Source: a candidate division FCPU426 bacterium
GTDB lineage: Bacteria > Oederibacteriota > JAAXVQ01 > JAUVAV01
Assembly: GCA_040756875.1 (NCBI GenBank)
Contig: JBFLYH010000001.1
Coordinates: 1,372,878-1,436,877 of the forward strand
Length of the DNA: 64,000 nt
Reading direction: 5' to 3'
In this document: in pieces, positions 40,527-63,851 of the stretch
How the letters are laid out: the number at the start of each line of letters is the position of its first letter
Numbering within the stretch: the first letter of the stretch is position 1
Translations under genes and position numbers: made by a program
Notes under the pieces: generated by a model
What the model was told of the DNA's origin: nothing
What the model saw: only the letters and a program-made list of their open reading frames with translations
Databases searched by the model: none

Positions 40527-40716
40527 ATGCAGGAGACCCCCTCCGGCAGGTTGGTGTGTCGGAAAAAAGACGGAAGATAATGTTTTTCCGGATCAGCGAC
40601 GGAGGAAACCCAAGGATATAGTGGGAAACGGGTAAGGAAATATAAGTATATCACAAAATCAGTTAAAATCAATTTTACGCCTGAAAATAAAGTGCTTTTA
40701 TCTTCCTACTTTACAG

Positions 40717-40745
40717 TTAGACTCAGGCAAAACGTTTTTATAACA
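40717..40745 (-). promoter_or_regulatory. ECF-type promoter
   Basis: TGTTAT-N17-GTCTAA. Confidence 0.7.
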
Positions 40746-40749
40746 CCCT

Positions 40750-40789
40750 AAAAATAAAACCAGGGGCGCATACTGCCTGCGCCCCTGGT
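40750..40789 (-). terminator. Intrinsic terminator after 40818..41768
   Basis: ACCAGGGGCGCA/TGCGCCCCTGGT 12-bp stem + TTTATTTT. Confidence 0.85.
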
Positions 40790-40817
40790 CGGAATTCAGT
40801 CCAACGAATCAGGCTTT

Positions 40818-41768: not shown

Positions 41769-41811
41769 GATTTTTAATCCCTCGATTTATAGTGATTGGA
41801 TTTCTTAATAA

Positions 41812-41841
41812 TTAGACTGAAGATGGCTGGTAAATATTACA
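41812..41841 (-). promoter_or_regulatory. ECF-type promoter
   Basis: TGTAAT-N18-GTCTAA. Confidence 0.68.
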
Positions 41842-41861
41842 TTCATTTTTTGATTTTTTAC

Positions 41862-41901
41862 CCGCAGGGCGCCCGAAGGCATGCTTGGGGCGCCCTGCAG
41901 G
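41862..41901 (-). other. GC-rich hairpin after 41926..50547 (no U-tract)
   Basis: GCAGGGCGCCC/GGGCGCCCTGC stem; followed by an A-rich run on the minus strand. Confidence 0.6.
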
Positions 41902-41925
41902 ACAAAAGTTCCCGGGAACTGGCTG

Positions 41926-44900: not shown

Positions 44901-47900
44901 GAACGGCCAGCGCGTAAATGTGGTTCACGCCCGATACGCTGACCTCCAAGGTATCGTAAACGCTGGTGTCGAGGTTTTTGACGACTGCCGACCAGGTTTC
45001 ACCCGTGGAATCCGCCGTTAAAGCGATGGTCGCTTGCGTGCCGCCGTCCCCTGTGAAGGAGCATTCATGCACCGACCAGCCTTCGGGCCGCTGTCCGGCC
45101 GGACCGGTGAAGTGGTCGAGATATCCAGCCGGGCCCTCGGGATGAATGCGAAGATAATCGAGTTTTCCAACCGTCGCGCCCTGCGGCCCATTGGCCCAGA
45201 CTTTGACAAAAATGGCCGAGAGGTCCTGTCCGGCCGCGATGTCGTGGAGGCGCACGCGGTGCGTTCCGGGCGTATTGAGCCCCGCGAAAGCGGTAATATA
45301 GGGGCCGTTGATGATCTGGATGCCGACGTCAAAATAGCAATTCGCGTTGACTTGCTCGACTTTTATTTCCAATACATCGTTCACAGTGGTGTTCAGTCCC
45401 CGGATGTCAGGCGACCAAATGTCGCCGTACGTCCGGTCCGGATCGAGCGTGATGGCGGCGTAGGTCGCGCCGTCGGACGTCAGGGTGGCGCCGCTGGCGG
45501 GCGAATTGCTTTTATCGCGCCACCCGGAAGGAATTTGCCCGTTCGTCCCCTTCAGGTGATCCGTATACCCTTCATTCCCCACCACCCGCACGTACTCCAG
45601 GGTTGCGGCCCCGCTGCGCGCCGAATCGTTGGGCCAAAACTTGATTGAAAACCGCGACAGGTCGGCTCCCGGCGCGAGGCTGTTCAAATCCACGTAATAA
45701 ACCCCAGCCGTCGTGGCCCGCAACGCCCCAAAATATTGGAAGCTGCCTGTCTCCTGCTGAATACCCACATCCAGATAGTCGCAGGTGAGACTGTCGATTT
45801 TGATCTCCAGGACGTGGAAAACCTGGGTGTCCAGGTTGGTGATCACGGGAGAGATCACGTCCCCGTAGGTGTCCAGGGGATCCAAGGTGATTACGGCTTG
45901 AGAGGCGCCATTGTCTTCGATCCGGGCGTTATACTCCCCCCAGGCCATGCGGTCGCGCCAGCCTTCGGGTTTTTCACCCGCCGCGCCTCCGAAGTGCTCC
46001 TCATACCCGTCCGGCGTGGGCGTGACCACCGGAACCGGCGGATGCTGGACAAAACGGACGTAATCCAAAACCGCGTCACTGGCGGCCGGCGTGCCGTTAA
46101 GCCACATTTTGACGGTCATGGCGCTCAAATCGGCCTCGGCCGGCACCCGGTCGAGTTTTGCCCGCCAGATGCCGCCGTCATTCACGCGGGCAATCAACCC
46201 GTAGTCCTGGAAGTTGTTGGTTTGGGTGTTCCGCGCCAGCAGGCCGACATCCACCCAGGCGCCGGACGTCACTCCGTCGACTTTGAATTCCAGGGCATCG
46301 TAGGTTGCGCGGTCGTGCTGGTAAATCATCGGGCCGGCGATGTTGCCGTAACTGCTGCCGCCGAGCAGGCGGATGGTCGCCTGGCTCGAGCCATTGCCCT
46401 GGAACGTGGCGTTGTATTCGTTGGAATTCGAACTGTCGTTCCAGCTGGCCGGAACCTGTCCGGCCGGGCCGGTAAAGTGGTCGTCGAACGCCGGATCGGG
46501 ATTCGGAGTGATCTTGATGTAATCCAATTTAACGGCCGCGTTCCCGGCCGGGCCGTTGATCCACAGCCGGAACGCGAACGCGGACATGTCCAGGTCGCCT
46601 TTAATGGCGTTCAGATCCACGCGGTAGGTGCCCGGATGATCAAGGCGGTGCATGCAGTTGTTCTGCCGGTGGCTGCCACGCTGTTCGTTCAGGGTGACGT
46701 CCAGCCAAGTGTTGGGCGTGACCTCCTTGATCCGGATCTCCAGTTGATTGTACGCCGTGGGGTCCAGATTGACGAAAATAGGCGTCCGCACCTGGCTGTA
46801 GTTATTGACGCCCGGACGCAAGGAGACGGTCGCCGTGGAGTCTCCGTTGCGGGTGATGGTCGCGTTGGAGATGTTGGGGTCCTGCCAATCCGTGTAGTCT
46901 TCCCAGTTGGCCGGCAGGGTGGCGGCCGGCCCGTCAAACTCTTCGAGATACCCGGCCTGGGCCGGCGCGGGTTCGAACGCCAGGTCATCCACGTAGGCGC
47001 GGTACGCTTCTCCGTGCAGGTTCCAGTCAGGGTCGTCGAATGCCACGTAAATCTCGTGGATTTCCTTCGCGCCGCCGTTCAGGAGCGGAGTAAGATCGAC
47101 TTCCACCAGGTTCCAGGCGTTGGCCGGATTATTCGCGACCTGGCGGGCGCTGGGATGAACGCCGATCCCATTCTGGTCCAGCAGCCCGGAGTCCCGCAAA
47201 TACTGCCGGTTGGACGGCACGTTGGGATCGGCGCCAGCTGCCGTATACATGAAATCAACGGCCACGCACTTGTTTCCGTCGTCAGCGCGCCCCGGGTCGT
47301 CGTAATGGTAGATGTAATAGCGCAGCTTCATGCCCGGCGTGACGGTGATTTTATGATAAGGAATGAGGACGTCGTTGAACAGCCAGGAATAGCAATAGGG
47401 ATTTCCGGGGCCGGTCAGATCCACTTTCCCGGATGCGACCAGGTAATCGCTGCCCGTGCGCGGGAGCACGTTGCGGTTGCCGGTATACGCCCGGGTGCAC
47501 AGCGGCGCGCCGTATTCCGCCGGATCATAGCCCGCGACATTGTTGCGCGAATCGTAGACATTGTCATACCCCATGGCCTCCCCGGCCTCCCACCCCGCGG
47601 CAATGGGATGGATGCTCCCACCCGTGGGCGGTTTGGGCGGCAGGGCGTTGTACTGGGCGATGAGGTCCACGTAGTTCTTGATATTCGTGCCGCGCGCGGG
47701 TTCAAACAACTGCCCGATGGTGTACCACCCCAGCCCGCTGAAATCCAGGGTTTGCAGATTCTGAAACACATCCTGCATTTGGGCGAAGCTGTTGAGGCCG
47801 CCGTTTTCACCGTACAATTTGGCCGTGGGGCCCCAGATGTCCCTCGCCGTCTGGGCATAGTATTTGGGGGCCGACCAGTCGCTCCGCAGGGGGCTGTCGT

Positions 47901-50547: not shown

Positions 50548-50622
50548 GGAAGTACCCCCCGAATGATGTTTCCGTAACACCTGTATATATAATGAATCGC
50601 AATGGATATTGTTAACCAGAGG

Positions 50623-50651
50623 TTAGACTAGGCAGGACGCGGTTTATAACA
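50623..50651 (-). promoter_or_regulatory. ECF-type promoter
   Basis: TGTTAT-N17-GTCTAA, identical boxes and spacing to 40717..40745. Confidence 0.7.
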
Positions 50652-50656
50652 GGACT

Positions 50657-50696
50657 AAAAAAAGAAAAGCCCTCCGGCTGGCAACCGGAGGACTTT
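50657..50696 (-). terminator. Intrinsic terminator after 50720..51664
   Basis: CCTCCGG/CCGGAGG stem followed by GCTTTTCTTTTTTT. Confidence 0.8.
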
Positions 50697-50719
50697 GACA
50701 GGCAAAAGGCGATAACGCT

Positions 50720-51664
50720 TTAAAAATGCACTCCCACGCTGAATTGGTGGGCCGTGCCCAGGTCTCCAAAAGCAGCCAGGGCGTAATCCACCACCAACAA
50801 TTCGCCGCGGATGCCCAGCCCCAGGGTCAGGCCGGTCGAACCGCCCAAGCCTCCGGTTTCGCGGATTTTATAACCCAAGCGCAGGGCGTAATTCGTGTAC
50901 CAGTATTCGGTTCCCAGATTCGCGGACACGTACCGGGTATCTCCGAAGGGAACGTCCACGTCCAAAAGCACGTTCCAACTGTCCTTGTCGAACAATTGGA
51001 CCGGCAGTTTATAGGCCGCGCCCACCTTGGCCGCCAGGGGCAGGTTGAAATCCAGCACCGGCGTGCCCAGGTTGCGCACCACGGCGCCCAGCTGCAGGTT
51101 CAGGACCGGCGGCTTGACCAGCACGCCCGCGTCAAAGGCCACGGCTGAATAGCTCTCGGTGTCGATGGTCTGCGAAAAATACTTTATCGTCGCGCCTACG
51201 GCCACCATGGGCACCAGCCACTGGCCGTACCCGGCGGAAAAGGCCAGCACCGACGGCGTGAAATCCCCCTGCGCTTCCGGCAGGCCGTCGCTTCCCACCA
51301 CGTATCTGGAAAATTGGCCGTAATTAATGTACATGAGGTTCGCGCCCAGGCCCGAACCGCCGAATATATTTTGGGCGTAGGCGAGGTATTCCACCGAAGT
51401 ACCCTGGAGATAAATGTTGTGCATGAACCCGGCTTCGATCCCGCCAATCTGGGCCAGGCCGGCGGGGTTCCAGGCCGTGGCATTGACATCGTCGGCCTTG
51501 GCGATGAAAGCCTCGCCCATGGCCACGGGCCTTGACCCCAACCCCAGCCCCAGTTCAGAGGCGCCCACCTTGCCGGCCGCAAAATCCGTCTGATCGGCCC
51601 ATCCAGCCGCCACCCAAACGGCAGCCGCGCCCAGCGCGGCGATCAAGTGATGCCAACGGATCAT
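50720..51664 (-). CDS. PorV/PorQ-family outer-membrane beta-barrel (paralog of 40818..41768)
   Basis: GKVGASEL.LGLG.RPVAMGEA, WNPAGLAQ, AGFMHNIYL and EYLAYAQN shared with the paralog; C-terminal Phe; 21 bp downstream of the six-module gene. Confidence 0.82.
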   Translation of the reverse strand: MIRWHHLIAALGAAAVWVAAGWADQTDFAAGKVGASELGLGLGSRPVAMGEAFIAKADDVNATAWNPAGLAQIGGIEAGFMHNIYLQGTSVEYLAYAQNIFGGSGLGANLMYINYGQFSRYVVGSDGLPEAQGDFTPSVLAFSAGYGQWLVPMVAVGATIKYFSQTIDTESYSAVAFDAGVLVKPPVLNLQLGAVVRNLGTPVLDFNLPLAAKVGAAYKLPVQLFDKDSWNVLLDVDVPFGDTRYVSANLGTEYWYTNYALRLGYKIRETGGLGGSTGLTLGLGIRGELLVVDYALAAFGDLGTAHQFSVGVHF

Positions 51665-51685
51665 GACGTTCCTCCTGTCATCCGA

Positions 51686-54600
51686 TTATTTAATGATAGC
51701 CACTTTCTTGACCTGATTCACGACCTGCAGACCCTGGTCATTGGTAACCACCAAGCGGCAGAAGTAAATGCCCGGCGCCACCTGGGCCGCGTTCCAGACC
51801 ATGGTCAGCACCTGGCTGGGCGAACCGACCGCCTGCTCCTGCACCGAGGCCACCCGCTCGCCGGTCATGCGATAAATGTCCAGTGTGGCGGTCACCGGCC
51901 CGTTGGCCTGGTAGCCGAAAATAACCCGGTCAGTGGCCGGGTTGGGATAAGCCAGGAAATCGTTTTTAGCCACCCAGGGCGTGGCGGTGTAAGTCGGCGT
52001 CACCGTGGGTGTCGCGGTCGGGAAGCCGTAACCGGCGATCCGGACAAAGTCCAGTTCCACGTACTTGCCGGCGCCGCCTTCCACGGCGATTTCCACGCTG
52101 AACCGATGCGTGCCGCTATTCCAGCCCGCCACGGCGGCGTAATTGTATTCAAAGGTACCGAGGTTGGCATTGTTCGCCTGGATCTCATACGTCGCGTAGG
52201 AGCCTTCCAGTTCCTGAATATTGAGTTTCCACTGTGTGGCGGTCGAAATACCCTTTACGCTGATCTGCACCAAGGGGAATTGCGCCGTGTCGATCGTCAA
52301 GGCCGGAGACATGACTTTGCCCCAGGTGCTGTCCGCGTTGCGCGTGACCGCGGCCCAGGAATAGGTCGTGGAATGGGCAATCTCCAGGTTGTAGGCCGGG
52401 TTTTGGGATTCATCTTCCCAATTTGCGGGCTGCTGGCCGGGCGTGCCGATGAAATGATCTTCCCAGCCGATCACAGTCGGTATCGGTGTGGGCGTAATCG
52501 TGGGTGAGGGTGGCACGCCGAGCATGTAGATTTGCACCAGATCCAAAGTCACCGTGGCCGGCGCATCGCCCACCAGGACCAGTTCCACGCTGAAGGTATG
52601 TACTCCGGTATTCAAACCGGTCAGCGTGGCATAATTGAAATTGAACGTCCCGACCGAGCCTGTTTCCGTATTCAAGTCCCAATGCCTGAAGCTGCCTTCC
52701 TGTTCCTGGATCCCGAGCTTCCACTGGGCGCCGCCCGCCACGTTGCTGACGACGACTTGGAGCCAGGGGTATTGGCCCACGTCCACAGTCTTGTTGGAGG
52801 TCAGCACCTTGCCCCAGCCTTCGCTGCCAGCCGGCCGCGTGAGCGCCGCGTAAGAATTGACGGCTGAATAGGAGATTTCGAGATTGAAGCTAATGGTATC
52901 GGTGTCGTCGAGCCAGCCTGCGGGCTGCTGTCCGGGTGTGCCGCCGGTGAAATGATCGCTCCAGAAAGCGGTGATCGCCTGGGTGGCGGTGATCGTGGGC
53001 GTGGCGGTCGCGCTGTTTACGACATCCGGCGTATTCGTGACGGTAAAGGTGGCCGGCGGAGTCGTGCCGTAGATGCGCACCTGGTCCACCACCACGTATT
53101 CACCGGCCCCTCCTTCCACCACGATTTCCACGCTGAACACGTGCGTGCCGGTGTTCCAGCCCGTAAGCGCGGCGTAATTGAAGGATTGCGTGGCCACCCC
53201 GCTTTGGGAGCCGCTCAGGTCCCAATGGGAATAACTGCCTTCCTGTTCCTGGATGCCGAGTTTCCAGGTGGCGCCGGCTGAAAGCCCGCTCACCGTGATT
53301 TCGACCATGGGATAGAACCCCACGTCGACGGTCTGGTTGGGCGACAACACCTTGCCCCACGTGCTCTCCGCGGTCCGCGTCACCGCGGCCAGGGAGCTGG
53401 TGTAGGAATAGGCGATGTGCGCGTTGAAGGTAGCATCCTGGGTCTCATCCGTCCAATTGGTCGGCTGGTCGCCGGCCGTGCCTATAAAATGATCCTGCCA
53501 GCTATTGTAAGTGCCGGTCCCGGTAGTGGAGGTCGGCGTGGGCGTGAACGTCCGGGTGATGGTCCGGGTCGCGGTAATAGTCGGAGTGGGCGTGTGGGTG
53601 TTCACGAGGTCCGGCGTATTGGTAATGGTGAAGGTCGGAGAAGCGGTCGGCGTCGGCGTAATAGTGGGCGTTTTGGTCAAGGTGGGAGTATTGGTCGGCG
53701 TATTGGATGTCCCATAGATGCGCACGGAATCCACGACCACGTATGTTCCCGTGCCGCCTTCCACGATGATCTCCACGCTGAACACGTGCACCCCGCTCAG
53801 CAACCCGGTCAGCGTGGCATAGTTGAACGGAAACGTTCCGGTCCCGGTTTGCGACCCGCTCAAATCCCAGTGCCGGTAGCTCCCCTCCTGCTCCTGGATC
53901 CCCAGCTTCCAGCTGGTGCTGGCCGAAAGCCCGGTGACCACGATTTCCACCATCGGATAAGCTGCCACGTCCGCGGTCTGCGCCGGCGACAGTACCTTGC
54001 CCCACGTGCTCTCCGCCGTGCGCGTCACTGCGGCCATGGAATTAATATAGGAATACGCGATGTGCGCGTTGAAATTCGCATCCTGCGTCTCGTCCCACCA
54101 GTTGGTCGGCTGGTCGCCGGCTAGACCCACGAAATGATCCTCCCAAAAGTTGGACGTCGGACCGCCGGGCGTGACCGTGGGCGTGATGGTGGGGGTAAAG
54201 GTCGGCGTGCCGCTGCTGCCGCTGTAAATGCGCACGGAATCTACGACCACGTATGTTCCCGTGCCGCCTTCCACGATGATCTCCACGCTGAACACGTGCG
54301 TCCCGCTCAGCAACCCGGTCAGCGTGGCATAGTTGAACGGAAACGTCCCGGTCCCGGTTTGCGACCCGCTCAAATCCCAGTGCCGGTAGCTTCCCTCCTG
54401 CTCCTGGATCCCCAGCTTCCACGACGTGCTCGCCGATACCCCGCTCACTACAATTTCAATCATGGGATACGTCGCCGTATTCACAGTCTGCGCCGGAGAC
54501 AGCACCTTGCCCCACGTGCTTTCCGCGGTCCGCGTCACCGCAGCCATCGAACTCGTGTACGAGTAGGCGATATGCGCGTTGTAGCTCGAATCCTGCGTCT

Positions 54601-55231
54601 CGTCCCACCAGTTGGTCGGCTGATCGCCGGCTATGCCCACGAAATGGTCCTGCCAAAAGTTGGACGTTGGACCGCCGGGCGTGGCCGTGGGCGTGATGGT
54701 GGGGGTAAAGGTCGGCGTGCCGGCAACGTCATAGATGCGTACGGAATCCACGACCACGTATGTTCCCGTGCCACCTTCTACGATGATCTCCACGCTGAAC
54801 ACGTGCACTCCGCTCAGCAACCCGGTCAGCGTGGCATAGTTGAACGGAAACGTCCCGGTCCCGGTTTGCGACCCACTCAAATCCCAGTGCCGGTAGCTTC
54901 CCTCCTGCTCCTGGATCCCCAGCTTCCAGCTGGTGCTGGCTGAAAGCCCGGTGACCACGATCTCAATCATCGGATTAGCGGCCACATCCAAAGTCTGCGC
55001 CGGCGACAGCACCTTGCCCCACGTGCTCTCCGCCGTGCGCGTCACTGCGGCCATGGAATTAACATAGGAATACGCGATGTGCGCGTTGAAATTCAAGTCC
55101 TGCGTCTCGTCCCACCAGTTGGTCGGCTGGTCGCCGGCCGTACCCACGAAATGTTCTTCCCAGACATTGGCCGCCTGGGTATTGACCGCCGCGAACACGA
55201 TCAGTCCCATCACCGCGAGTATTTTTTTCAT
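51686..55231 (-). CDS. Secreted non-catalytic protein of six tandem repeated modules + T9SS-like CTD
   Basis: Signal peptide from ATG 55231 (MKKILAV); six W.(D/E)HF.G..G.QP..W.D(E/D) units with Thr/Pro linkers; YPNP...KKVAIIK. Confidence 0.85.
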   Translation of the reverse strand: MKKILAVMGLIVFAAVNTQAANVWEEHFVGTAGDQPTNWWDETQDLNFNAHIAYSYVNSMAAVTRTAESTWGKVLSPAQTLDVAANPMIEIVVTGLSASTSWKLGIQEQEGSYRHWDLSGSQTGTGTFPFNYATLTGLLSGVHVFSVEIIVEGGTGTYVVVDSVRIYDVAGTPTFTPTITPTATPGGPTSNFWQDHFVGIAGDQPTNWWDETQDSSYNAHIAYSYTSSMAAVTRTAESTWGKVLSPAQTVNTATYPMIEIVVSGVSASTSWKLGIQEQEGSYRHWDLSGSQTGTGTFPFNYATLTGLLSGTHVFSVEIIVEGGTGTYVVVDSVRIYSGSSGTPTFTPTITPTVTPGGPTSNFWEDHFVGLAGDQPTNWWDETQDANFNAHIAYSYINSMAAVTRTAESTWGKVLSPAQTADVAAYPMVEIVVTGLSASTSWKLGIQEQEGSYRHWDLSGSQTGTGTFPFNYATLTGLLSGVHVFSVEIIVEGGTGTYVVVDSVRIYGTSNTPTNTPTLTKTPTITPTPTASPTFTITNTPDLVNTHTPTPTITATRTITRTFTPTPTSTTGTGTYNSWQDHFIGTAGDQPTNWTDETQDATFNAHIAYSYTSSLAAVTRTAESTWGKVLSPNQTVDVGFYPMVEITVSGLSAGATWKLGIQEQEGSYSHWDLSGSQSGVATQSFNYAALTGWNTGTHVFSVEIVVEGGAGEYVVVDQVRIYGTTPPATFTVTNTPDVVNSATATPTITATQAITAFWSDHFTGGTPGQQPAGWLDDTDTISFNLEISYSAVNSYAALTRPAGSEGWGKVLTSNKTVDVGQYPWLQVVVSNVAGGAQWKLGIQEQEGSFRHWDLNTETGSVGTFNFNYATLTGLNTGVHTFSVELVLVGDAPATVTLDLVQIYMLGVPPSPTITPTPIPTVIGWEDHFIGTPGQQPANWEDESQNPAYNLEIAHSTTYSWAAVTRNADSTWGKVMSPALTIDTAQFPLVQISVKGISTATQWKLNIQELEGSYATYEIQANNANLGTFEYNYAAVAGWNSGTHRFSVEIAVEGGAGKYVELDFVRIAGYGFPTATPTVTPTYTATPWVAKNDFLAYPNPATDRVIFGYQANGPVTATLDIYRMTGERVASVQEQAVGSPSQVLTMVWNAAQVAPGIYFCRLVVTNDQGLQVVNQVKKVAIIK
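53715..55165. repeat. Three near-identical direct repeats (~510-nt period) encoding modules 1-3
   Basis: Long shared DNA blocks, e.g. agttgaacggaaacgt(t/c)ccggtcccggtttgcgaccc at about 53821, 54331 and 54838. Confidence 0.9.
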
Positions 55232-55315
55232 TCCAGCCTCCCCACCAAACGGCCTCAGGCAGGATACGCCCAAAGCCTTGTATATATCGGGATTATATCA
55301 TAGCGCAATATATAG

Positions 55316-55344
55316 TTAGACTTGCAAAATACCCAAATCGTTTC
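55316..55344 (-). promoter_or_regulatory. ECF-type promoter
   Basis: GAAACG-N17-GTCTAA. Confidence 0.62.
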
Positions 55345-55367
55345 ACATTTTTTTTGTGAATGAGCGG

Positions 55368-55412
55368 AATAGGGCGAACCCCGCGCAAGCTGCTCGCGGG
55401 GTCCGCCCTATT
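55368..55412 (-). other. Long hairpin after 55421..59908 (weak or no U-tract)
   Basis: AATAGGGCG.ACCCCGCG / CGCGGGGT.CGCCCTATT inverted repeat. Confidence 0.65.
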
Positions 55413-55420
55413 TGCCGGTT

Positions 55421-58400
55421 TTATCGAATCAAGGCCACCTTCTTCTTCAATTTCATTACCTCGTTGCCACTGGCACCGGTTATTTCAATGCGGCAAATAT
55501 AAATGCCCGGCGCCACGCCCTCGGCTTGCCAAGTCGTAACCAGGGTCTGCCCCTGGCCGCCGTCCCGGAATTCCGTGATCGCGGCTACCCGTTCCCCGGT
55601 CAGCCGGTAGATGTCAATCTTCACCTTGCCCGCACCTGCAAGTGTATAGGCGAAATGCACATTCCCGCGCGAGGGGTTGGGATAAGTCATGACCTGGTTT
55701 TTGCCCAGCCAGGGGGTGGGCGTGGAAGTCGGCGTCAGGGTCGGGGTTGATGTCGGTGTCAGGGATGGAATGGTTATTGGCGTCGAAGTGGGAGTGGGAG
55801 TAGGAGTGAATACAGAGGTAACGGACGGCACCGGCGTCAGGGGAGCCATGGTACTGCCCATGACACTGCCCGCTTGGCCGACCCATAGATAGTCGACCTC
55901 AAACCATTTGCCGGCCGCGCCCTCCACGACCATCTCCAGATTGAACTCCTGGACGCCCGCCCACCCGGTTATCGCGGAATAATTGTAAGTATATTCCCCG
56001 GTGCTTGACGAGCTGTTCTGCAGGACGGCAAATTCCGTCTCGCTGTCTTTCTTGCGAATGATCAATTTCCATGCGGTGTCGGCCGAAATCCGGTCCACCT
56101 TGATTCCCACGATCGGATACTCACTGACGTTCGCTGTGAGCAAGGGAGACTGGACTTTTCCCCAGCCGATGGCATCCGCCGTGCGGGTAATACAAGCCAC
56201 GGAATAGGCGGAGGAAAAAGCGACGTGCGCATTAAAGCCCGTGTCGTCGTTTTCGTCCTTCCACTCTTGCGGCTGCACCCATAATGTGCCTTTGAAATGG
56301 TCGGCCCAGGCCATGCCGGCCGGCAAGGTCGGTTCCGGCGGCCGGGTCCCGTTCACGACGCTGATGTTTTCCAGCCAGGCGGCGGCATAGTCGGTCGGCG
56401 AGGGCAGCACCCCGTTGGCCGCCCCCACGATCAGCCTGAAACTCCGGACGCCATTTTGCAGGCTTTCGGGGAGATAATACTTGAGGTTGTAAATATATTC
56501 GCCCGGCAGGCCTGCGTCGTATTCCATCCGGACGATGGGATCGCTGGTCGAGCTGCCCAATTGCAAATAGGTATACCATACCTGCTGAACCTTCCGGACG
56601 TTCATCCTCACATCCGCTTCCTGGTCCATATCCACGGTAAACGGCTGGCTGGCGGCAATGCTGCCCCAAAAATCCTGGGTCGTCGATCCGGCAACATTGA
56701 GTTTGACTTCCGTGCCGTCTATCACGCGGCTGGTCGAACCGTCGCGGACCGGCCACTGGGCGATGATGTCCGGCACTTGGTAGTTGAGCAGGATCTGTTC
56801 GGCGCCTGCGGCTGCCGGCATCACGGCCAAGGGCGCGGCGGGCCTGGACACCTGGTTAAGCGGATTGAACGTCGTGCCTTGATAGGCGTTCAACACCGCT
56901 CCCACGCCGTCGCGCATGGCCCCGGCCGTGGTAAAACAACCCTTGTTTTGGGTGACAAAATCGTTCAAAGTCCAAATCATGGTGCCGGCGATGTCCGCGG
57001 AATATGCCTGCGAATAAACACGGTTGAAATAGGCGGCGATTTGTTCCGCAGAATACCCGGCATTATAATCCAACCCGTGTTCTTCGAACAGAATCGGCCG
57101 GGTTACGCCTTTTTTCGCCATAAGCTGTCTGGCCTGCATGACCATGCCCAGCTCCGGTTTGTCATCGCCGAGCGAATGGAGGGCAAAAACATCTATATTC
57201 GTCAGGTCCAGCGCCCGGATGGCAAAAGGCCGGCTGGAGGCAGCGACCAGAAGATGATTCGGGTCCTGGGCCTTCATATGTTCGGCCATGTTGGCATGCC
57301 ACGCATACGCTTCGTCTTTTTTGCTTTGCAAAGCGAAATGCAGCGCATAAAGATCGAGTTCGCTGGTTACCCCCCAGGCAAAGATGCGGTCGTCCTCCTT
57401 GAAACGTTCAAGCACGGCGGTCAAATGATCCCTCATTCCCTGCCACTTCGAGACCGAATAATCCCGGGCATAGGGGAAGAACGTGAGTTCGACCCGCAGG
57501 CCCAGGCGGTCGGCAAGGTATAAAAAGTCCTCCATACGCGCCAGCATTTCCGGCCTCACGCTGGCCCCGCCGAATTCTTCGTAGTGCACGAAAAATCTCA
57601 CCGCGTTGAACCCAAGTTGGGCAACACGCGCGAGTTCTTGTTCGACCCGTTCCGCATCCCATTGGCTCCACACTTCGTGATTCGTCTCATCGTAGGTCGC
57701 AGGATAATAATTGACCCCTTTGATTTTAACCACCGTGCCATTCAGTTCCAGCTGTTCGGGTTCGGTCGCGCTGCGATGGATGAAACTGACGGCAGCCGGC
57801 CTGCGCACTCCGAATATTTTCACGTAATCAATGGCCAGGTTGCTTCCGGCGATCCCCTGGACCTTAATCTGAATCTGAAGCCGTTTCTCTCCTGACCAGC
57901 CGGCGATCGCCGCATAATTGAAATAATAGCGGCCCGGGGATGCCTGCCACGGGCAGAGATCGTAATCATTGCCTTCCACCTCATGAATGCCGACTTTCCA
58001 GGCGGTGCCAGCGGAAACGCCGTCTACTTTGATCTCCAAATGATCATACTGGCTGGCATTGGTCAGGAACGGCAGGGACACGGTTTTCCCTTCCGCGTTT
58101 TCCAGCAGAGTCAACGTCGCGGTCGTGCTCCCGCTTCCGTCGCCGACGAACTCGGAATCCAGGCCGGAATTCTGGCTTTCGTCAAGCCAGCCAAAAGGTT
58201 GGCCGGAAATGTTCCGGAAATGGTCAAACCAGAAATCCGCGATCGGGGTGACCGAAACCGTGGCTGTCATGGTCATGGTCGGCGTCGGGGAAACGGTCGG
58301 CGTCTGCGTGGCTGTAAGGGTTTGCGTAGGCGTGGGGCTGATGGTGCAGGAGGCGGAAAGCGTCGAGGTCACTGTGGGTGTCGGCGTCACCGTGGGCGTC

Positions 58401-59908
58401 GGAGTCAGCGGAACGCTCTGACGCAGGCTCACGCTGTCAAAAATGGCCGAATGGTTCGTCCCCTCGGTAAACAAATCGACGCCGAACGTGACGATTCCGC
58501 TCCAGCCCATGACGCTGCGCAGATCCCAGGCATAGGTTCCGGCCGCCGAGATTCCGCTCTGGATGTCGTACCCTCCTGTCCCCCGCGCTACGCCGACCTT
58601 GACGGTCCCGGTGGCGACTTGATCGATTTTGACTTCCAGAAAAGGATACTGATCAATATCCGCCGTTATGTTTTGGCCGGTCATGATCTGCGCATAATTG
58701 GCCTGGCCGTCATTGGTTTCGATCACATAGCCGTCGCGCGTGTCGTACCAGGCAATGGGCCTGGTTAGGAGCCACCCTTGGGGGGGATTGCCGGGCGAAG
58801 ACGGAGGGATGTCATCCGAATAGTTGAACTCGTCCTGCCAGGCCACTGTCGCCGAAACAGTCTGAAGCGGATTGGTGCTGATTCTCACGAAGTCCAACTT
58901 CACCTGGCAGTTTGCGCCATCCGAAATCAACTCCACACCCAGGTATTTGATTCCGCTCCACGCGCCGCTGGTGGCCGCGGGAATATCGAAAGTATACAGC
59001 CCGGGCCGGGTAATCGACTGGGCGCAGGTAAACGATTGCCACCCCCCCGAGGTGGTGAACACATTGACTCTGAACGTTCCGTTCGTTACGCTGTCCACTT
59101 TGACTTCCAGCGTGGCATACACATTCAGATTCACGTCCTGCGAAAAGGACTGCACCTTCCCCCACGAAGCCCCGGGGACTGTTTGCAACAAAGCCCTCGA
59201 GATTTGGCTGTCATAGGCGATTTCGGCGTTGAAGCTGCCGTTATTGGTTTCATCGTACCATCCCGGGCATTGCATCCCGGGGGACGAAGGAGGGACATCG
59301 TCGCTATAGACGAATTCTTCCCTCCACTTGTACAGGGCATAGGCGGGTTTGCGGGTTATTTTAATGTAATCCAATTCAATCCATTTTCCGGAAGCGCCCT
59401 CGACCACGACTTCGAACTTGAAAGCATGCGTGCCTGTCCAGCCAGCCACGGCGGCATAATCGTAGCAAAACGTTCCGCCGGTGTTCTTGGTGGCCTGGAT
59501 CACCCAGGAAGGAGAACCCGGGGTGCTTTCGCGCAGAATCAGTTTCCAGCCCGTGCTCGACGACAGCCGGTTGACTTTGATTTCCACCAGGGGATACTCA
59601 TCGACATTGACCACCCGCTGCGGGGTCGACACCTTCCCCCATACGTCCTGGGCGGTCCGCGTCACAGCCGCCACGGAGGATTGATACGAGTAGGCGATTT
59701 CCGCGTTGAAGTCGGCGGAATTGGTTTCGTCGATCCAGCCGGCAGGCTGCGCCCCCGGCGCGCCTCCGTCGAAATGATTGATCCAAATGTCCGGCGTGGG
59801 GGTAGGCGTCGGGGTCGCCGCCGCCCATCCCGGCAATGTAAACAACAGCCATCCGACGAACAACCACCTGGTTTGCGACCCTGTCTGAATCCCGCTTTGG
59901 TTTTTCAT
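55421..59908 (-). CDS. Secreted clan GH-A (GH5-like) glycoside hydrolase with 5 repeated modules and T9SS-like CTD
   Basis: KGVNYYP, LGFNAVRFF, WGVTSELD, RPILFEEHG; paralog of 24662..28162; YPNP...KKVALIR. Start placed at ATG 59908 behind GGAGGGGG. Confidence 0.8.
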   Translation of the reverse strand: MKNQSGIQTGSQTRWLFVGWLLFTLPGWAAATPTPTPTPDIWINHFDGGAPGAQPAGWIDETNSADFNAEIAYSYQSSVAAVTRTAQDVWGKVSTPQRVVNVDEYPLVEIKVNRLSSSTGWKLILRESTPGSPSWVIQATKNTGGTFCYDYAAVAGWTGTHAFKFEVVVEGASGKWIELDYIKITRKPAYALYKWREEFVYSDDVPPSSPGMQCPGWYDETNNGSFNAEIAYDSQISRALLQTVPGASWGKVQSFSQDVNLNVYATLEVKVDSVTNGTFRVNVFTTSGGWQSFTCAQSITRPGLYTFDIPAATSGAWSGIKYLGVELISDGANCQVKLDFVRISTNPLQTVSATVAWQDEFNYSDDIPPSSPGNPPQGWLLTRPIAWYDTRDGYVIETNDGQANYAQIMTGQNITADIDQYPFLEVKIDQVATGTVKVGVARGTGGYDIQSGISAAGTYAWDLRSVMGWSGIVTFGVDLFTEGTNHSAIFDSVSLRQSVPLTPTPTVTPTPTVTSTLSASCTISPTPTQTLTATQTPTVSPTPTMTMTATVSVTPIADFWFDHFRNISGQPFGWLDESQNSGLDSEFVGDGSGSTTATLTLLENAEGKTVSLPFLTNASQYDHLEIKVDGVSAGTAWKVGIHEVEGNDYDLCPWQASPGRYYFNYAAIAGWSGEKRLQIQIKVQGIAGSNLAIDYVKIFGVRRPAAVSFIHRSATEPEQLELNGTVVKIKGVNYYPATYDETNHEVWSQWDAERVEQELARVAQLGFNAVRFFVHYEEFGGASVRPEMLARMEDFLYLADRLGLRVELTFFPYARDYSVSKWQGMRDHLTAVLERFKEDDRIFAWGVTSELDLYALHFALQSKKDEAYAWHANMAEHMKAQDPNHLLVAASSRPFAIRALDLTNIDVFALHSLGDDKPELGMVMQARQLMAKKGVTRPILFEEHGLDYNAGYSAEQIAAYFNRVYSQAYSADIAGTMIWTLNDFVTQNKGCFTTAGAMRDGVGAVLNAYQGTTFNPLNQVSRPAAPLAVMPAAAGAEQILLNYQVPDIIAQWPVRDGSTSRVIDGTEVKLNVAGSTTQDFWGSIAASQPFTVDMDQEADVRMNVRKVQQVWYTYLQLGSSTSDPIVRMEYDAGLPGEYIYNLKYYLPESLQNGVRSFRLIVGAANGVLPSPTDYAAAWLENISVVNGTRPPEPTLPAGMAWADHFKGTLWVQPQEWKDENDDTGFNAHVAFSSAYSVACITRTADAIGWGKVQSPLLTANVSEYPIVGIKVDRISADTAWKLIIRKKDSETEFAVLQNSSSSTGEYTYNYSAITGWAGVQEFNLEMVVEGAAGKWFEVDYLWVGQAGSVMGSTMAPLTPVPSVTSVFTPTPTPTSTPITIPSLTPTSTPTLTPTSTPTPWLGKNQVMTYPNPSRGNVHFAYTLAGAGKVKIDIYRLTGERVAAITEFRDGGQGQTLVTTWQAEGVAPGIYICRIEITGASGNEVMKLKKKVALIR

Positions 59909-59995
59909 TTTCCCCCTCCGGCGATTGGATTTCTCCAGTGAAACCATCATCCGTCCGCTTGCGTTTCACCGTTCCTTTCAGCGGACGGATCAGAA

Positions 59996-62878
59996 TCATT
60001 TGTATCCATATACTCTTACATAATCCAGCAGGATAAACTGCCCGGGCTCCCCCTCCATGTTGATCTGCACGATGAATTCCCTGACCCCGCGCCAGCCGGT
60101 CTTGGCCCGTAGGTCCGCCGAATAGGTCAGGGCGTCGGCCGAGCCGGCGACAAGGTCCCAGTAATTGTCCGTGCCCGGCTCGCGCAGGGCGATGTTCCAG
60201 CGCGTGCCCGGCGAGTTGCGGACCACTTTGGCTTCCACGTAGTTGTAGCGGTCGACATCGAGGCGGATCAGGCGGCTGCGGATGTTCCCCCAGGTGCTCT
60301 CCGCGGTGCGCGTGACCGCGGCGAAGCCGGGTTCGCACGCATACGCGATCTCGGCATTGAGGTCCGCCTGGTCGGTTTCATCCTGCCATTGCGAGGGTTG
60401 CCGGCCCGGCGTGCCGTTGAAGTCGTCCTGCCATCCGTTCATGCAGGGCGGCGTGACGGTGGGCGTGCCGGTCGGGCGCTGCCGCGGTTCGGCCAGGCCG
60501 GGCACAAAGGCGCCCATCCGGTTGTTCACGATGACGGCCCGGGAGGAAAACCCGGCGGTTGTGATGAACATCATCCAATATCCCGGTCCGAGATCAGGGG
60601 GAAACCTCAGGCGCAGCGTGTCCTTGGTCTGGGACCACGCCAGGGGATAAAGCCGGGAAGTCAGGTCCAGCATTTGCCCGGAAGAACTGTACACGCCCAT
60701 GCTGCCGCTGTCCAGGGCGAGGAGCCAAGCCCGGGGATAATTCACAGCCGAACTGCCCCACCCCTGGCCGCAGCCTGCCCCCCAGGGGCCGCGAAATCCC
60801 TGCCCGATCACGATGCCGATGGCCCCGGGTTTGGCCACATCGGACCAGGTCTTGATCCGCGGGCCTGGCCCGGATTCAGGCGGCAGGGCTTCGCCGCGAT
60901 AAGAACAGGCTTCCAGGCTGGCCAGATATTCCAGCCGGTCCTCGCCGCCGGTCAGCAGCACGCGGCCGTCCGCCAGCAGCGTGGCCGTATGCTCCCGGCG
61001 CTGGCCCGCCAGCGGGGCTGAAAGGTGGAAATGGTCCGTGGCCGGATGGTACCATTCTGTTTCCGCGGCGCCGCCCGCCAGCAGGACGTCGCCGCCGGGC
61101 AGCAGGGTGGCGGTGTGCCCGCTGCGGGCCCGGTTGAGGCGGCCGGCGGAAACGAACCGGTTGGTCGCGGGATCATAGCGTTCCGCCCCGGCTAAAAGGC
61201 TTTCCTGATTGGCGCCGCCGGCGATCAAAACCTGGCCGTTGGCCAGGCGTGTGGCCGTGTGCATGGCTCTGGGTTCGGCCATGGCGCCGGCGGGCGAAAA
61301 ACGCCGGGTCAGCGGATCGTACAATTCGGCGCTGGCCAGGTAACGCGCGCCGTTGTACCCTCCGGCGATCAGCACTTTGCCATTGGCCAGCAAGGTTGCG
61401 GAATGCTTTTCCCTGGGTTCAGCCATGCGGCCCGCGGAGATGAAGCTTCTGCTTTCAGGATCATAGAGCTCGGCGCTTGCGAGATGCTTCTGGTTGAATC
61501 CCCCGGCCAGCAGCACCTGGCCGTTGTTCAGGAGTGTGGCCGTTTGCTTTTCCCGCCGGGCCAGCATCCTGCCCGTCATTTCGAAGCGCCGCGTGTCCGG
61601 ATGGTAAAGCTCGGCGCTGTCATAATACTCGCCGTCGCCGTAGCCGCCGGCCAGCAGCACCTCGCCTCCGGGCAGGAGGGTCGCGGAATGGCAGTGCCGC
61701 GGAACCAGCATCATGCCCGCCGCCAGGATGGCATTGGCCTGGGGGGCGAAGCGTTCGCACTGGGCGAGATAACGTCCGTTATAACCGCCCGCGATCAGAA
61801 CCTGGCCGTCCGGCAGCAGGGTGGCGGTGTGGGTGTGACGGGAAAGGCTCATGGATCCCAGCGCGGTCCAGGCGCCGGTTCCGGGCAGGTAGAGTTCCGG
61901 CCGCAGCCCGCTGCCGCCGCCGAAGACGAAGACTTTGCCGTCTGGCAGCAGCGTGGCGCTGTGGAAGGCGCGGGCCGAAGCCATGGGCGCCTGCGTCAGC
62001 CAGCGGTTGCCGGCAGGATCAAACCTCCATGCCTGAGGCCCGGACAGCAGCATCACCGTGCCGTCAGGCAGCAGCGTGGCGGTCAAACCGGGCCGGAGGG
62101 CGTCCAGCTGGCCCACAACCTGCGCGCGCCGCTCCTGGGGGAAATACCGCTCCACTGCCGCGGGCCCGCCGCCGGCCAGCAAGACGCTTCCGTCCGCCAG
62201 CAGCACGGCCGCCGGGTCGATGCGGTCGCCCGCGAGCCGGCCGGCGGACTGAAAGTCATTGCGCCCGATGCGGTAGATTTCCACGGCCGGGTTCCCGCCG
62301 CCGGCCACCAGCACCTGCCGCTCGTCCAACAGGACGGCCGCATGCCCGGCGCGAGCGAATTGAAGGTTTCCGGCTTTTCGGAATTTTCCGTTTCGCGGGT
62401 CGTACAGTTCGGCCGCCTGCGGGCCGCCGCCGGCCAGCAACACCTGGCCGGTCGGCAGCAGCGTGGCCGTGTGCCCTGCCCGCGCAAAATGCATGCTGCC
62501 CGTGGAGGTAAACTCGCCGGTTGCCGGCTGGTAAATCTCAGCCGAGGATTGCGGCTTTCCGAACGCGTCCTCGCCGCCCGCGATCAGAACCGTGCCGTCG
62601 GGCAGCAGCGTGGCCGTGTGCCGGGCCCGCCGGTTGGTCATGTATCCGGCGACGCGGAAAGTCCCGTTTTGCGGATCGAACAGCCAGGCGCCGTAGCCCG
62701 GCCGGCCCTGGCTGAAGCCTCCGGTCAGCAGCACTTTTCCGTTGGGAAGCAGGGTCGCGGCATGCCGCGCAGTGTCCGTGGTCGCTTCCACCGGATAGCA
62801 CCACTCCCCGGCAGCGGCTGATTTGAGGTAGGCGAATATCAACAGGGCGGATAGCAGGATGCGAGCGGTAGGTCTCAT
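59996..62878 (-). CDS. Kelch-repeat (tandem beta-propeller) secreted protein ending in one repeated module, no CTD
   Basis: About 14 R..HTATLL.(D/N)G.VL.AGG...AE.YDP repeats; C-terminal WQDDFNGTPGRQPSQWQDETD...TRTAESTWG module. Confidence 0.88.
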   Translation of the reverse strand: MRPTARILLSALLIFAYLKSAAAGEWCYPVEATTDTARHAATLLPNGKVLLTGGFSQGRPGYGAWLFDPQNGTFRVAGYMTNRRARHTATLLPDGTVLIAGGEDAFGKPQSSAEIYQPATGEFTSTGSMHFARAGHTATLLPTGQVLLAGGGPQAAELYDPRNGKFRKAGNLQFARAGHAAVLLDERQVLVAGGGNPAVEIYRIGRNDFQSAGRLAGDRIDPAAVLLADGSVLLAGGGPAAVERYFPQERRAQVVGQLDALRPGLTATLLPDGTVMLLSGPQAWRFDPAGNRWLTQAPMASARAFHSATLLPDGKVFVFGGGSGLRPELYLPGTGAWTALGSMSLSRHTHTATLLPDGQVLIAGGYNGRYLAQCERFAPQANAILAAGMMLVPRHCHSATLLPGGEVLLAGGYGDGEYYDSAELYHPDTRRFEMTGRMLARREKQTATLLNNGQVLLAGGFNQKHLASAELYDPESRSFISAGRMAEPREKHSATLLANGKVLIAGGYNGARYLASAELYDPLTRRFSPAGAMAEPRAMHTATRLANGQVLIAGGANQESLLAGAERYDPATNRFVSAGRLNRARSGHTATLLPGGDVLLAGGAAETEWYHPATDHFHLSAPLAGQRREHTATLLADGRVLLTGGEDRLEYLASLEACSYRGEALPPESGPGPRIKTWSDVAKPGAIGIVIGQGFRGPWGAGCGQGWGSSAVNYPRAWLLALDSGSMGVYSSSGQMLDLTSRLYPLAWSQTKDTLRLRFPPDLGPGYWMMFITTAGFSSRAVIVNNRMGAFVPGLAEPRQRPTGTPTVTPPCMNGWQDDFNGTPGRQPSQWQDETDQADLNAEIAYACEPGFAAVTRTAESTWGNIRSRLIRLDVDRYNYVEAKVVRNSPGTRWNIALREPGTDNYWDLVAGSADALTYSADLRAKTGWRGVREFIVQINMEGEPGQFILLDYVRVYGYK

Positions 62879-63056: not shown

Positions 63057-63674
63057 TCAGGCGGTCACCAGGCCCACGGCATCTTCCCCCAGCCACGGGC
63101 GGCTGATTTTCGACAGTAAATGTTTGCCCCGCAAGAGGCGCACGCCCAGGATTGCAGCCGGAATGTTCAAACGCCTGGCTGCTTCGCTGTAAGAGTGGCG
63201 CTTCCAATAAATAAGGTAGATCACGCGCCGGTATTTCTTCGGCAGCGTCTTCAAGGCCTGGCGCAGGCCGCTGATCTGCTGTTCCAGCACCAGCTGCTCC
63301 TCCAGGTTGTTTCCCGGTGCGGTCAAAACCAGGTTCTCGGGCAGACCGGCCTGAGGCAGGCGCCGCCGCTTGGTCAGATGTGTCTTGCAGGTGTTGGCCG
63401 TTATGCGGAACAACCAGGTCCACAGCCCCGATTGGCCGCGAAAATTAAGAATCTTTTTCTCGCCCAAGACTTTGGAAAAAACTTCCTGTGCCGCGTCCCG
63501 GGCATCGTGCAGATCGCGGAAATAACGCAGGCAGGTATTCAGCACTTTGCGATAGTATCGGTCTGCCAGCTGATCCGCCGCGCTTGCCACGTTATTACGG
63601 ATTAGCTGGATGAGCTCCATATCCGTTAAATCGATCGTATCTTTCTTTTCAGTACAAATAACAGGCATGGGCAT
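63057..63674 (-). CDS. ECF sigma factor (sigma70 group 4, RpoE-like)
   Basis: Region 2 DARDAAQEVF...FRGQSGLWTWLFRITAN; region 4 LP..YR.VI.L.Y....SY.E.A..L.IP; AGGAG RBS. Confidence 0.88.
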   Translation of the reverse strand: MPMPVICTEKKDTIDLTDMELIQLIRNNVASAADQLADRYYRKVLNTCLRYFRDLHDARDAAQEVFSKVLGEKKILNFRGQSGLWTWLFRITANTCKTHLTKRRRLPQAGLPENLVLTAPGNNLEEQLVLEQQISGLRQALKTLPKKYRRVIYLIYWKRHSYSEAARRLNIPAAILGVRLLRGKHLLSKISRPWLGEDAVGLVTA

Positions 63675-63704
63675 TCGCTCCTATATTAATGATTCACAAT
63701 AATA

Positions 63705-63720
63705 AGCAAACGCCATGCCA
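63705..63720 (-). promoter_or_regulatory. sigma54 (-24/-12) promoter for the ECF gene
   Basis: TGGCATGGCGTTTGCT versus consensus TGGCACG-N4-TTGC(A/T); exact GG-N10-GC; ends ~30 nt upstream of the start codon. Confidence 0.78.
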
Positions 63721-63833
63721 CTTCTAGGCAGTTAGTAAAAAACTCTTTTCCTTATAAATAAGCTGTTTCTGCATTTATTCAAAAGAAGAGACAAACGAAA
63801 CCGGAAGGTTTTTATTCCAGCCGGAACAAATAA

Positions 63834-63851
63834 CTTCCACTTCAGTGGAAG
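63834..63851. promoter_or_regulatory. Palindrome, candidate upstream activator sequence for a sigma54 enhancer-binding protein
   Basis: CTTCCACT-TC-AGTGGAAG perfect 8-bp inverted repeat ~115-130 bp upstream of the -24 box. Confidence 0.4.

Follow-up and report, generated by a model that had tools for sequence, protein, structure and literature searches.

The window analysed here is a 64-kb stretch of DNA from a candidate division FCPU426 bacterium (G000:C1:1372878-1436877, where G000 is the 3.2-Mb source genome; in what follows, G-numbers denote genomes and L-numbers loci), and our subject is the gene for an extracytoplasmic function (ECF) sigma factor near its end, together with the promoter region and the regulators that accompany it. 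The gene (63057..63674, minus strand) encodes a group 4 sigma factor of 205 amino acids that consists of sigma-70 regions 2 and 4 only (Pfam Sigma70_r2, 46.5 bits; Sigma70_r4_2, 38.1 bits), region 3 being absent. Followed upstream on the minus strand, the gene is preceded by a predicted sigma-54 -24/-12 box, TGGCATGGCGTTTGCT (63705..63720, minus), then by an AT-rich stretch, an inverted repeat and a perfect palindrome. The last base of the box lies 30 nt ahead of the ATG at 63674, and the usual convention for such boxes, a start 11-12 nt downstream of the GC, puts the predicted transcription start near 63694, in agreement with the figure of an earlier sequence-only reading of the window. The GC content falls to 0.33-0.37 over ~63601-63850, as against 0.56-0.69 in the flanks. 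The palindrome, found by an inverted-repeat search, has two arms of 8 nt, CTTCCACT-TC-AGTGGAAG (63834..63851; CTTCCACT-GA-AGTGGAAG on the minus strand), and is centred 124 nt upstream of the GG of the box. On the other side of the ECF gene, a gap of 178 bp (62879-63056) leads to a gene for a Kelch-repeat protein. The sequence-only reading had described a sigma-54 box just upstream of the ECF gene, an AT-rich spacer, a perfect palindrome about 120 bp further upstream and some 180 bp to the Kelch gene with no open reading frame (ORF) for an anti-sigma factor in between, and each of these features is borne out.

The genes that lie beyond this promoter region are those of a two-component system. 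The final 90 bases of the window belong to the 3' end of a gene for an NtrC-type response regulator of 456 amino acids (63911-65281 in coordinates extended past the window, L001:911-2281, minus), a bacterial enhancer-binding protein (bEBP) with the domains Response_reg (79.8 bits), Sigma54_activat (194.5 bits), AAA_lid_14 (63.3 bits) and HTH_8 (25.4 bits). Upstream of it is a histidine kinase gene (65297-66661, L001:2297-3661, minus; 454 amino acids; HATPase_c, 96.1 bits), whose product has two hydrophobic segments (residues ~28-55 and 175-200) with a loop of ~120 amino acids between them, which is the layout of a periplasmic sensor. The genome holds a single, complete rpoN (a 483-residue ORF with the Sigma54_AID, CBD and DBD domains; G000:C2:607920-608396), ten full bEBPs and four HU/IHF-family genes. 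The sequence-only reading had counted on rpoN and on a bEBP gene just beyond position 64000, and had held that an anti-sigma gene immediately beyond the window would speak against it; rpoN is present with its three domains, and the place in question is taken by the bEBP, with its receiver, Sigma54_activat and HTH_8 domains, and then by the kinase.

To score candidate boxes, we held the GG and GC fixed and counted matches to the TGGCAC-N5-TTGCW consensus over 11 positions on both strands. The ECF box matches at 10 of the 11. The pattern TGGCAY-N5-TTGCW has this one match in the whole window, where 0.11 would be expected, and 10 of 100 shuffled windows contained at least one match somewhere in their 64 kb, a rate that lends something to the view that the box is a chance match and that the ECF gene is transcribed from an ordinary promoter. 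Across the genome, 51 sites score at least 10/11, nine of them intergenic on a crude ORF map, and five are both intergenic and no more than 250 nt upstream of an ORF on the same strand. These five precede glnA (which adjoins a bEBP), fliL, an unknown ORF of 274 amino acids, the present ECF gene and a paralogous ECF gene; with glnA and fliL among them, the consensus evidently recovers sigma-54 targets of the classical kind here. A consensus scan of the intergenic region found no sigma-70-like site on the strand of the ECF gene.

The conservation of the box among relatives carries more weight. We searched for homologues in 61 genomes (G000 and 60 relatives, E <= 1e-20) and recovered 25 ECF loci in 11 of them, G000 included. 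All lie within two families of a single class; none was found in the 46 genomes from the other families of the phylum, and within the class, which comprises 15 genomes, four (G002, G008, G010 and G011) are without an ECF of this family. A box of at least 10/11 stands 28-100 nt before the start codon at 18 of the 25 loci, and the count rises to 19 with L236, whose box is in front of a receiver-only ORF and, beyond it, the ECF gene; at a threshold of at least 9/11 it is 21. Near-misses, or no box at all, are found at L019 and L028 (TGGCATGCTTCTTGAA, with GA replacing GC), L022 and L237, L025 and L012; the 9/11 box of L022 sits inside a receiver-only ORF and was left out of the count. As negative controls we used generic ECFs of at most 37% identity, drawn from scans of genome and metagenome contigs with a five-row alignment as query; a scan of the genome contigs with the single ECF as query had no match. 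None of 144 such unrelated loci has a box of at least 10/11, and among random 340-nt genome windows the figure is 59 of 20,000 (0.3%). At 9/11 or better, 12 of the 144 score, nine of which belong to one subfamily from Acidobacteriota and soil. Twelve ECF loci of the same class had also been taken as non-family controls; one of these, L213, proved to be a truncated member of the family that has a 9/11 box and, upstream, a bEBP, and the remaining 11 do not exceed 8/11. In a quick maximum-likelihood tree (supported by SH-aLRT values only, built without the partial ECF L013 and with 30 generic ECF rows from a random 45 of 160 control loci), the 22 family rows form one clade with an SH-aLRT of 99, and the box-less L025 and L012 are placed with ordinary ECFs outside it. 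Taken together, the conservation of the box, the controls and the tree make it a trait of this ECF clade, with the proviso that the homologous loci are relatives and their counts are not independent events. The conservation that the sequence-only reading had looked for is thus found in both orthologues and paralogues. A chance match is all but refuted by a position kept upstream of 19 of 25 homologous genes and 0 of 144 controls; the adjoining bEBP and the failure to find a sigma-70-like site on the ECF strand also tell against it, and we regard it as scarcely credible.

The nine Acidobacteriota and soil metagenome loci just mentioned (L072, L079, L093, L095, L102, L160, L162, L163 and L167) form an observation of their own. 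They have in common TGGCAC-N5-CTGCC (one instance is TGGCACACAGTCTGCC) some 35 nt ahead of the ECF match, and no bEBP lies within their 3-kb flanks; they may represent another sigma-54-linked ECF subfamily or may carry a conserved coding motif.

The regulators travel with the box. By tblastn, a bEBP gene is directly upstream of the ECF gene on the same strand at 13 of the 25 loci, and with longer flanks three more (L225, L232 and L227) show the order box-ECF-...-kinase-bEBP in one orientation, an arrangement that would give positive feedback; this brings the loci with an adjacent bEBP to 16. Three such modules are present in G000 itself, the present locus being the first. The second (L028) runs binding protein-kinase-bEBP-receiver ORF-ECF and on to a 2443-residue FG-GAP/T9SS-tail protein (T9SS, type IX secretion system), and the third (L029, G000:C2:864000-883999) runs binding protein-kinase-bEBP-[box]-ECF-181-residue ORF-CusB-CusA-like. 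The binding-protein gene that precedes the kinase gene in L029 is of the periplasmic type (Phosphonate-bd), and L231 has the same kinase-bEBP-sigma-54 box-ECF cassette, there too followed by a small ORF of unknown kind and by CusB/CusA-like efflux genes. At four loci a receiver-only ORF of 125-171 amino acids lies between the bEBP and the ECF genes (L028:15563-15940, L236:1579-2007, L237:2390-2905 and L238:17815-18216), and in two of the four the sigma-54 box is in front of this ORF. We had at one point considered a receiver-like C-terminal extension on some of the bEBPs; this was rejected, as the receiver is a separate ORF and the bEBPs concerned keep their helix-turn-helix domain. At the level of sequence, then, the parts, their order, the conservation of the box and the bEBP neighbourhood are established across the ECF clade. 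Based on them, the wiring of the present locus is well supported and probably runs from the kinase and bEBP through a sigma-54 promoter to the ECF sigma factor, with no anti-sigma factor involved.

The last element of this wiring concerns something absent, and we looked for it in several ways. No anti-sigma ORF is present in the 178-bp gap between the ECF and Kelch genes, where the minus-strand ORFs of at least 20 amino acids are off-frame overlaps with the ECF or Kelch coding sequence and none is free-standing. No anti-sigma Pfam domain was found in 24 scanned proteins of related loci, and the present locus has none in its kinase, bEBP or Kelch protein. Anti-sigma factors nonetheless easily escape recognition, and the gene for one could lie elsewhere, which tells against a purely transcriptional control; a cognate factor, unrecognised or unlinked, would make the sigma-54 promoter just one layer of regulation. 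Something of the kind is suggested by the small ORFs without a Pfam match that directly follow several paralogous ECF genes (181 amino acids in L029, 194 in L235, 108 in L229 and 140 in L237), and by the loci with a receiver-only ORF between bEBP and ECF (type B), whose product could act on the sigma protein. Paralogous loci of either kind, with a small ORF after the ECF gene or a receiver-only ORF before it, may harbour a hidden regulator at the protein level. At the present locus and its four closest orthologues, by contrast, the gene after the ECF gene encodes a predicted secreted Kelch protein without a cytoplasmic segment (here it has a signal-peptide-like start and no cytoplasmic domain, from the translation read by eye), the upstream neighbours are the bEBP and the kinase, and an anti-sigma domain turned up in no scanned neighbour. 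We consider a cognate anti-sigma factor for the ECF quite improbable.

If the bEBP acts on the box, it should have binding sites some 80-150 bp upstream of the promoter. The palindrome, at about -148 from the predicted start, is a candidate upstream activator sequence, and a second inverted repeat, TTTGTTCC-GGCT-GGAATAAA (63811..63830, minus; arms of 8 and spacer of 4, centred 102 nt from the GG), is a candidate additional site. A MAFFT alignment of five orthologous promoter regions sets this second repeat against TTCAC...GTGAA palindromes of the orthologues; as the alignment misplaced the sigma-54 box of the window, we used it for the repeat region only, and with caution. Nearer the promoter, ~30-50 nt upstream of the -24 box, is an AT-rich element (63750..63769; GAAACAGCTTATTTATAAGG on the minus strand; GC 0.33-0.37), and many loci of the family have a similar, conserved element, AAGCYTTATTTATAAAG-like, upstream of the -24 box at a distance of 25-45 nt; its composition and position would suit a bending or IHF-like site. 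The conservation of the palindrome itself, for which the sequence-only reading had also asked, holds in part: two of the four closest orthologues have related palindromes 92 nt from the GG, TTCACAG-G-CTGTGAA (L004) and TTCACAC-A-GTGTGAA (L006), whereas other paralogous loci have different repeats at similar distances from the box. Across the family, repeats in this region are more frequent than expected. Inverted repeats with arms of at least 8 and no more than one mismatch, centred 75-140 nt upstream of the box, occur at 16 of 19 loci where mononucleotide shuffles lead one to expect 3.6, and repeats with perfect arms of at least 7 occur at 8 of 19, where 0.6 are expected.

These repeats could also be read in another way, namely as intrinsic terminators of the kinase-regulator operon, the activator sites being elsewhere or degenerate. 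Both begin ~60 nt past the stop codon of the bEBP gene and both score as terminator-like on the minus strand in a consensus scan (stems of 9 and 8 pairs), an RNA fold of the region includes the palindrome hairpin (z-score -2.0), and in L006 the related palindrome is part of a longer hairpin that is followed by a T-rich run (read by eye). Given their shape and their position just after the bEBP gene, they may partly or wholly end the kinase-regulator transcript. Their stems are, however, poor in GC (4 and 3 GC pairs) and their T tracts weak (ATTTGTT and TCGTTTG). Loci such as L013, L014 and L016, which have no gene end close by, show repeats at the same distance too, and the half-site TTC(C/A)AC...GT(G/T)GAA is shared by this locus and two orthologues whose proteins are less than 50% identical, which would suit binding by a protein better than it would suit a hairpin. 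The repeats could play both parts at once, and terminators in place of activator sites strike us as rather doubtful.

The adjacent bEBP is atypical in the parts that should contact sigma-54 and power the reaction, and this counts against the reading that we favour. Its contact loop reads GSFTSA, with F and T retained, and its Walker B motif has Asn-Glu, not Asp-Glu, while the seven other bEBPs of the genome retain GAFT(G/S)A and the Walker B Asp. The Asn-Glu form occurs in 7 of 17 ECF-linked bEBPs (this locus, L001, and L221, L230, L233, L232, L029 and L231), and the contact loop varies widely among the bEBPs of related ECF loci. The F and T of the GAFTGA loop are the residues reported as critical. 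The activators of hrpL deviate from this loop too, with GAYTGA and GAFTGV (PMC3105312).

We therefore propose the following relay, in which each step is a prediction. The membrane histidine kinase, with its two transmembrane segments and its periplasmic loop, would sense an extracytoplasmic signal and phosphorylate the adjoining NtrC-type regulator. The regulator would then bind the inverted repeats ~100-150 bp upstream of the ECF gene and, helped by an AT-rich and probably bent spacer, reach the promoter, where its AAA+ domain would open the sigma-54 RNA polymerase complex presumed to be parked on TGGCAT-N5-TTGCT. The ECF protein would simply be made; with no anti-sigma factor to hold it, the amount of the protein would set its activity. 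Finally, it would probably drive the neighbouring array of Kelch, T9SS-cargo and PorV-like genes, possibly through promoters of the form TGTWAT-N17-GTCTRA.

This last step rests on what lies downstream. The first gene after the ECF gene encodes the Kelch-repeat protein (59996..62878, minus; 960 amino acids; Kelch_4, 209 bits, and related models), which has a signal-peptide-like N-terminus and no T9SS tail. It is followed by an array (23236..59950, minus) of seven genes for proteins with a T9SS C-terminal sorting domain (CTD), of 1509, 1195, 2884, 3163, 827, 1166 and 413 amino acids, and two genes of the PorV/PorQ family, of 314 and 316 amino acids. Por_Secre_tail scores the seven tails at 23.1-29.3 bits, so that three of the seven pass its cut-off of 27, and our own CTD profile matches the array proteins at E values of 1e-42 to 1e-47; the 413-residue protein also passes TIGR04183 (30.1 bits; cut-off 23), and the two PorV-like proteins reach 150.8 and 164.1 bits, in the order of their lengths, with NF033709 (PorV_fam; cut-off 90). 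In the genome as a whole, 62 ORFs carry a T9SS-type tail, in two sequence classes, and the secretion machinery itself may be represented by two divergent ORFs, a SprA-like ORF of 2149 amino acids (G000:C1:865312-868770; a match in five pieces, the best at 77.6 bits for a cut-off of 200) and a PorU-like ORF of 1188 amino acids with a tail (1195 in open frame; G000:C2:430911-434477; 49 bits for a cut-off of 420). The gene order is conserved. In all four of the closest orthologous loci (L220-L223, from two taxonomic families), the order bEBP-ECF-Kelch is kept, with a Kelch protein of 977-1004 amino acids straight after the ECF; CTD cargo follows the Kelch gene in all three that have sequence beyond it (L220, L221 and L222), and a PorV-like ORF of 314 amino acids is found in L221, where it was tested with Pfam, and in L223, where it was recognised by size only.

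Ahead of the PorV-like and T9SS-tail genes of the array we found a terminator hairpin followed by a bipartite, promoter-like motif, TGTWAT-N16-18-GTCTRA, which recurs in L221, L222, L223, L230 and L233. In the window, a motif search places it upstream of the 2884-residue gene as TGTTAT-N17-GTCTAA (50623..50651, minus), with sister sites at 41812-41841, 40717-40745 and 30886-30915 (all minus). Its layout is like that of ECF promoters, with two hexamers, a spacer of 17 +/- 1 and GTC in the downstream element. The word AGTCTAA is rare in the genome (49 sites, about 182 expected), and five of its sites are within the array. We had tried it as a -35 element and dropped this for a -10-like role on seeing the TGTWAT hexamer 17 +/- 1 nt upstream. 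Exact copies of the motif number five genome-wide, of which this array has three; permuting the upstream hexamer leaves 0-1. With up to one mismatch, there are 25 matches in the 773 kb of fetched loci (both strands), 16 of them upstream of tail-bearing or PorV-like genes. Only 4 of the 62 tail-bearing ORFs of the genome have the motif within 350 nt, three of them in this array, and it is hence not a general T9SS-cargo promoter.

That the ECF itself reads this motif is put in question by several results. TGTWAT-N17-GTCTRA is absent from the gap between the ECF and Kelch genes, where a conserved promoter-like element of the form TTG...-N17-TATACT stands ahead of the Kelch gene instead (read by eye), and the array motif is missing from the gap between the Kelch gene and the 1509-residue gene too. 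The motif is also present in arrays headed by paralogous ECFs that are only 33-37% identical (L230 and L233). Over the 15 genomes of the class, the exact motif has 45 matches and the reversed pattern 34. To these can be added the third module of the source genome, which precedes CusB/CusA-like efflux genes and not T9SS genes. The sigma-54-to-ECF step could thus be real and the array promoters nevertheless depend on some other sigma factor or regulator, in which case the ECF would have only the Kelch gene, or genes elsewhere, as its regulon. Against this stand the succession of ECF, Kelch, CTD cargo and PorV-like genes, which holds in two taxonomic families; the concentration of the motif in this array among all CTD genes; its ECF-like layout; and the four genomes without a family ECF, in which it has 4 matches as compared with 10 for the control. 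We see another reader of the array promoters as a serious contender, with the chances somewhat on the other side. Control of the T9SS cargo array by the ECF sigma factor is in our estimate slightly better than an even call. Given the missing motif before the Kelch gene, its presence with distant paralogues and its weak class-wide counts, the link from ECF to cargo is drawn from the conserved gene order. The sequence-only reading had proposed a sigma-54-to-ECF logic that controls a T9SS-like cargo set; its first half is upheld by the conserved boxes, the bEBP and rpoN, and its second half is at present suggested by gene order and an ECF-like motif.

The same reading had called this logic HrpL-like, after the HrpR/HrpS-sigma-54-HrpL cascade of Pseudomonas syringae. 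This is apt as far as an anti-sigma-less ECF driven by sigma-54 is concerned, and less so for the activator. HrpR and HrpS are a receiver-less pair, whereas here a single receiver-domain regulator is encoded next to its own kinase, so that the logic is better written as kinase/regulator pair to sigma-54 to ECF. As to the ECF protein, of the NCBIfam models, the superfamily model TIGR02937 alone passes its cut-off (79.5 bits; cut-off 42.9), every equivalog match is far under its own, and no HrpL-named model is among the best 25 of 64 matches. A search for homologous proteins returned the ECF itself and one metagenome protein of 70% identity, in a word-limited search that is not proof of rarity. 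The neighbours, finally, are Kelch, T9SS-tail and PorV-like genes and not those of a type III secretion system, and the module, with three copies per genome, characterises an entire ECF clade of an uncultured class. With a receiver-domain activator and its kinase, an unassigned ECF and T9SS in place of type III neighbours, the locus would operate much as the HrpL cascade does but does not appear to belong to that system.

This cascade is nevertheless the closest known system. In the HrpL (ECF32) cascade, and in the HrpX/Y-HrpS-HrpL version of Erwinia and Pantoea, an anti-sigma-less ECF is made from a sigma-54 promoter that needs a bEBP (PMC8999054; PMC3105312). The activators of hrpL bind between -147 and -36 and IHF stimulates transcription (PMC3105312); the counterparts here would be the candidate repeats at about -148 and the candidate bend site. 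In both systems the activators have non-canonical GAFTGA loops, and in both the ECF heads the regulon of a secretion system, in our case presumably. In the passages available, a 2022 review of non-canonical ECFs gives HrpL as the sole sigma-54 example among transcriptionally regulated ECFs (PMC8999054). The 2021 reclassification of ECFs lists ECF32, ECF234 and part of ECF39 as two-component-linked groups without an anti-sigma factor, and a term search of its text returned neither sigma-54 nor enhancer (PMC7826278).

Other known systems share parts of the arrangement. The closest in output is PorXY-SigP (ECF228) of Porphyromonas gingivalis, where T9SS-related genes are under the joint control of a two-component system and an ECF that has no anti-sigma factor, and where, in the section of the reclassification concerned, PorX stabilises SigP by direct protein contact (Casas-Pastor 2021, PMC7826278). 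At the present locus, by contrast, the response regulator is a predicted sigma-54 activator and the link is the promoter. To our knowledge, PorX is not a bEBP. CseB of Streptomyces coelicolor is an OmpR-type regulator that acts at a sigma-70-type promoter, sigma-54 not being involved, and so differs from the regulator here. The Rrp2-RpoN-RpoS pathway of Borrelia burgdorferi has a bEBP response regulator that turns on a sigma factor gene through sigma-54, but RpoS is not an ECF; rpoE of E. coli encodes an ECF and has a sigma-54-dependent promoter, but retains the anti-sigma factor RseA and several other promoters. What CseBC-SigE (ECF39) has in common with our locus is a two-component system that directly activates transcription of an anti-sigma-less ECF, as the relevant part of the review has it (PMC8999054). 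Literature searches that combined ECF, sigma-54 and enhancer-binding protein or NtrC gave listings and abstracts in which no such module is described (among them PMC12655853 and PMC12316311), and those on type IX secretion, sigma-54 and ECF gave genome and transcriptome studies of Flavobacterium whose abstracts mention no such cascade.

Control of an ECF sigma factor solely through a sigma-54 promoter has hitherto been tied to one textbook case, HrpL. Here the predicted wiring is a conserved trait of an entire ECF clade, takes its input straight from a two-component system and recurs in several copies; on this evidence, it would have evolved on at least two occasions and can serve as a module. 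It would also offer a first handle on the regulation of T9SS cargo sets outside the Bacteroidota, and the compactness of the cassette (kinase, bEBP, promoter, ECF and target promoter) makes its reuse as an orthogonal switch conceivable. A wider picture, which we put forward tentatively and would expect to fail somewhat sooner than to hold, is that an unclassified ECF clade, confined among the searched genomes to one class of an uncultured, groundwater-associated lineage, swapped its anti-sigma factor for a pathway from kinase to NtrC-type regulator to sigma-54 promoter. The cassette would then have been duplicated to about three per genome to switch on different functions of the envelope (T9SS cargo arrays that bring PorV-like shuttles of their own, and efflux of metals of the Cus type), its ECFs would read a new type of promoter, TGTWAT-N17-GTCTRA, and its activators would be functional although their Walker B motif reads Asn-Glu and their GAFTGA loops are degenerate.

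Some smaller observations concern the genes after the ECF gene. The C-terminal third of the Kelch protein and the 1509-residue protein that follows it (55421-59950) have in common a repeated module of ~150 amino acids (W..DET...FNAEIAY...) without a Pfam match, the copies of which are parted by PT-rich linkers. In the sister species, locus L230 (G001:C2:522500-542400) has an array with the same type of tail and a PorV-like gene but no Kelch gene, headed by an ECF gene whose product is 37% identical to ours. Finally, the Kelch gene and the 1509-residue gene are 45 bp apart (59951-59995), and this spacer includes an inverted repeat of 9 bp, CCGTCCGCT...AGCGGACGG, which runs up to the start codon and may be a translational or attenuator structure.

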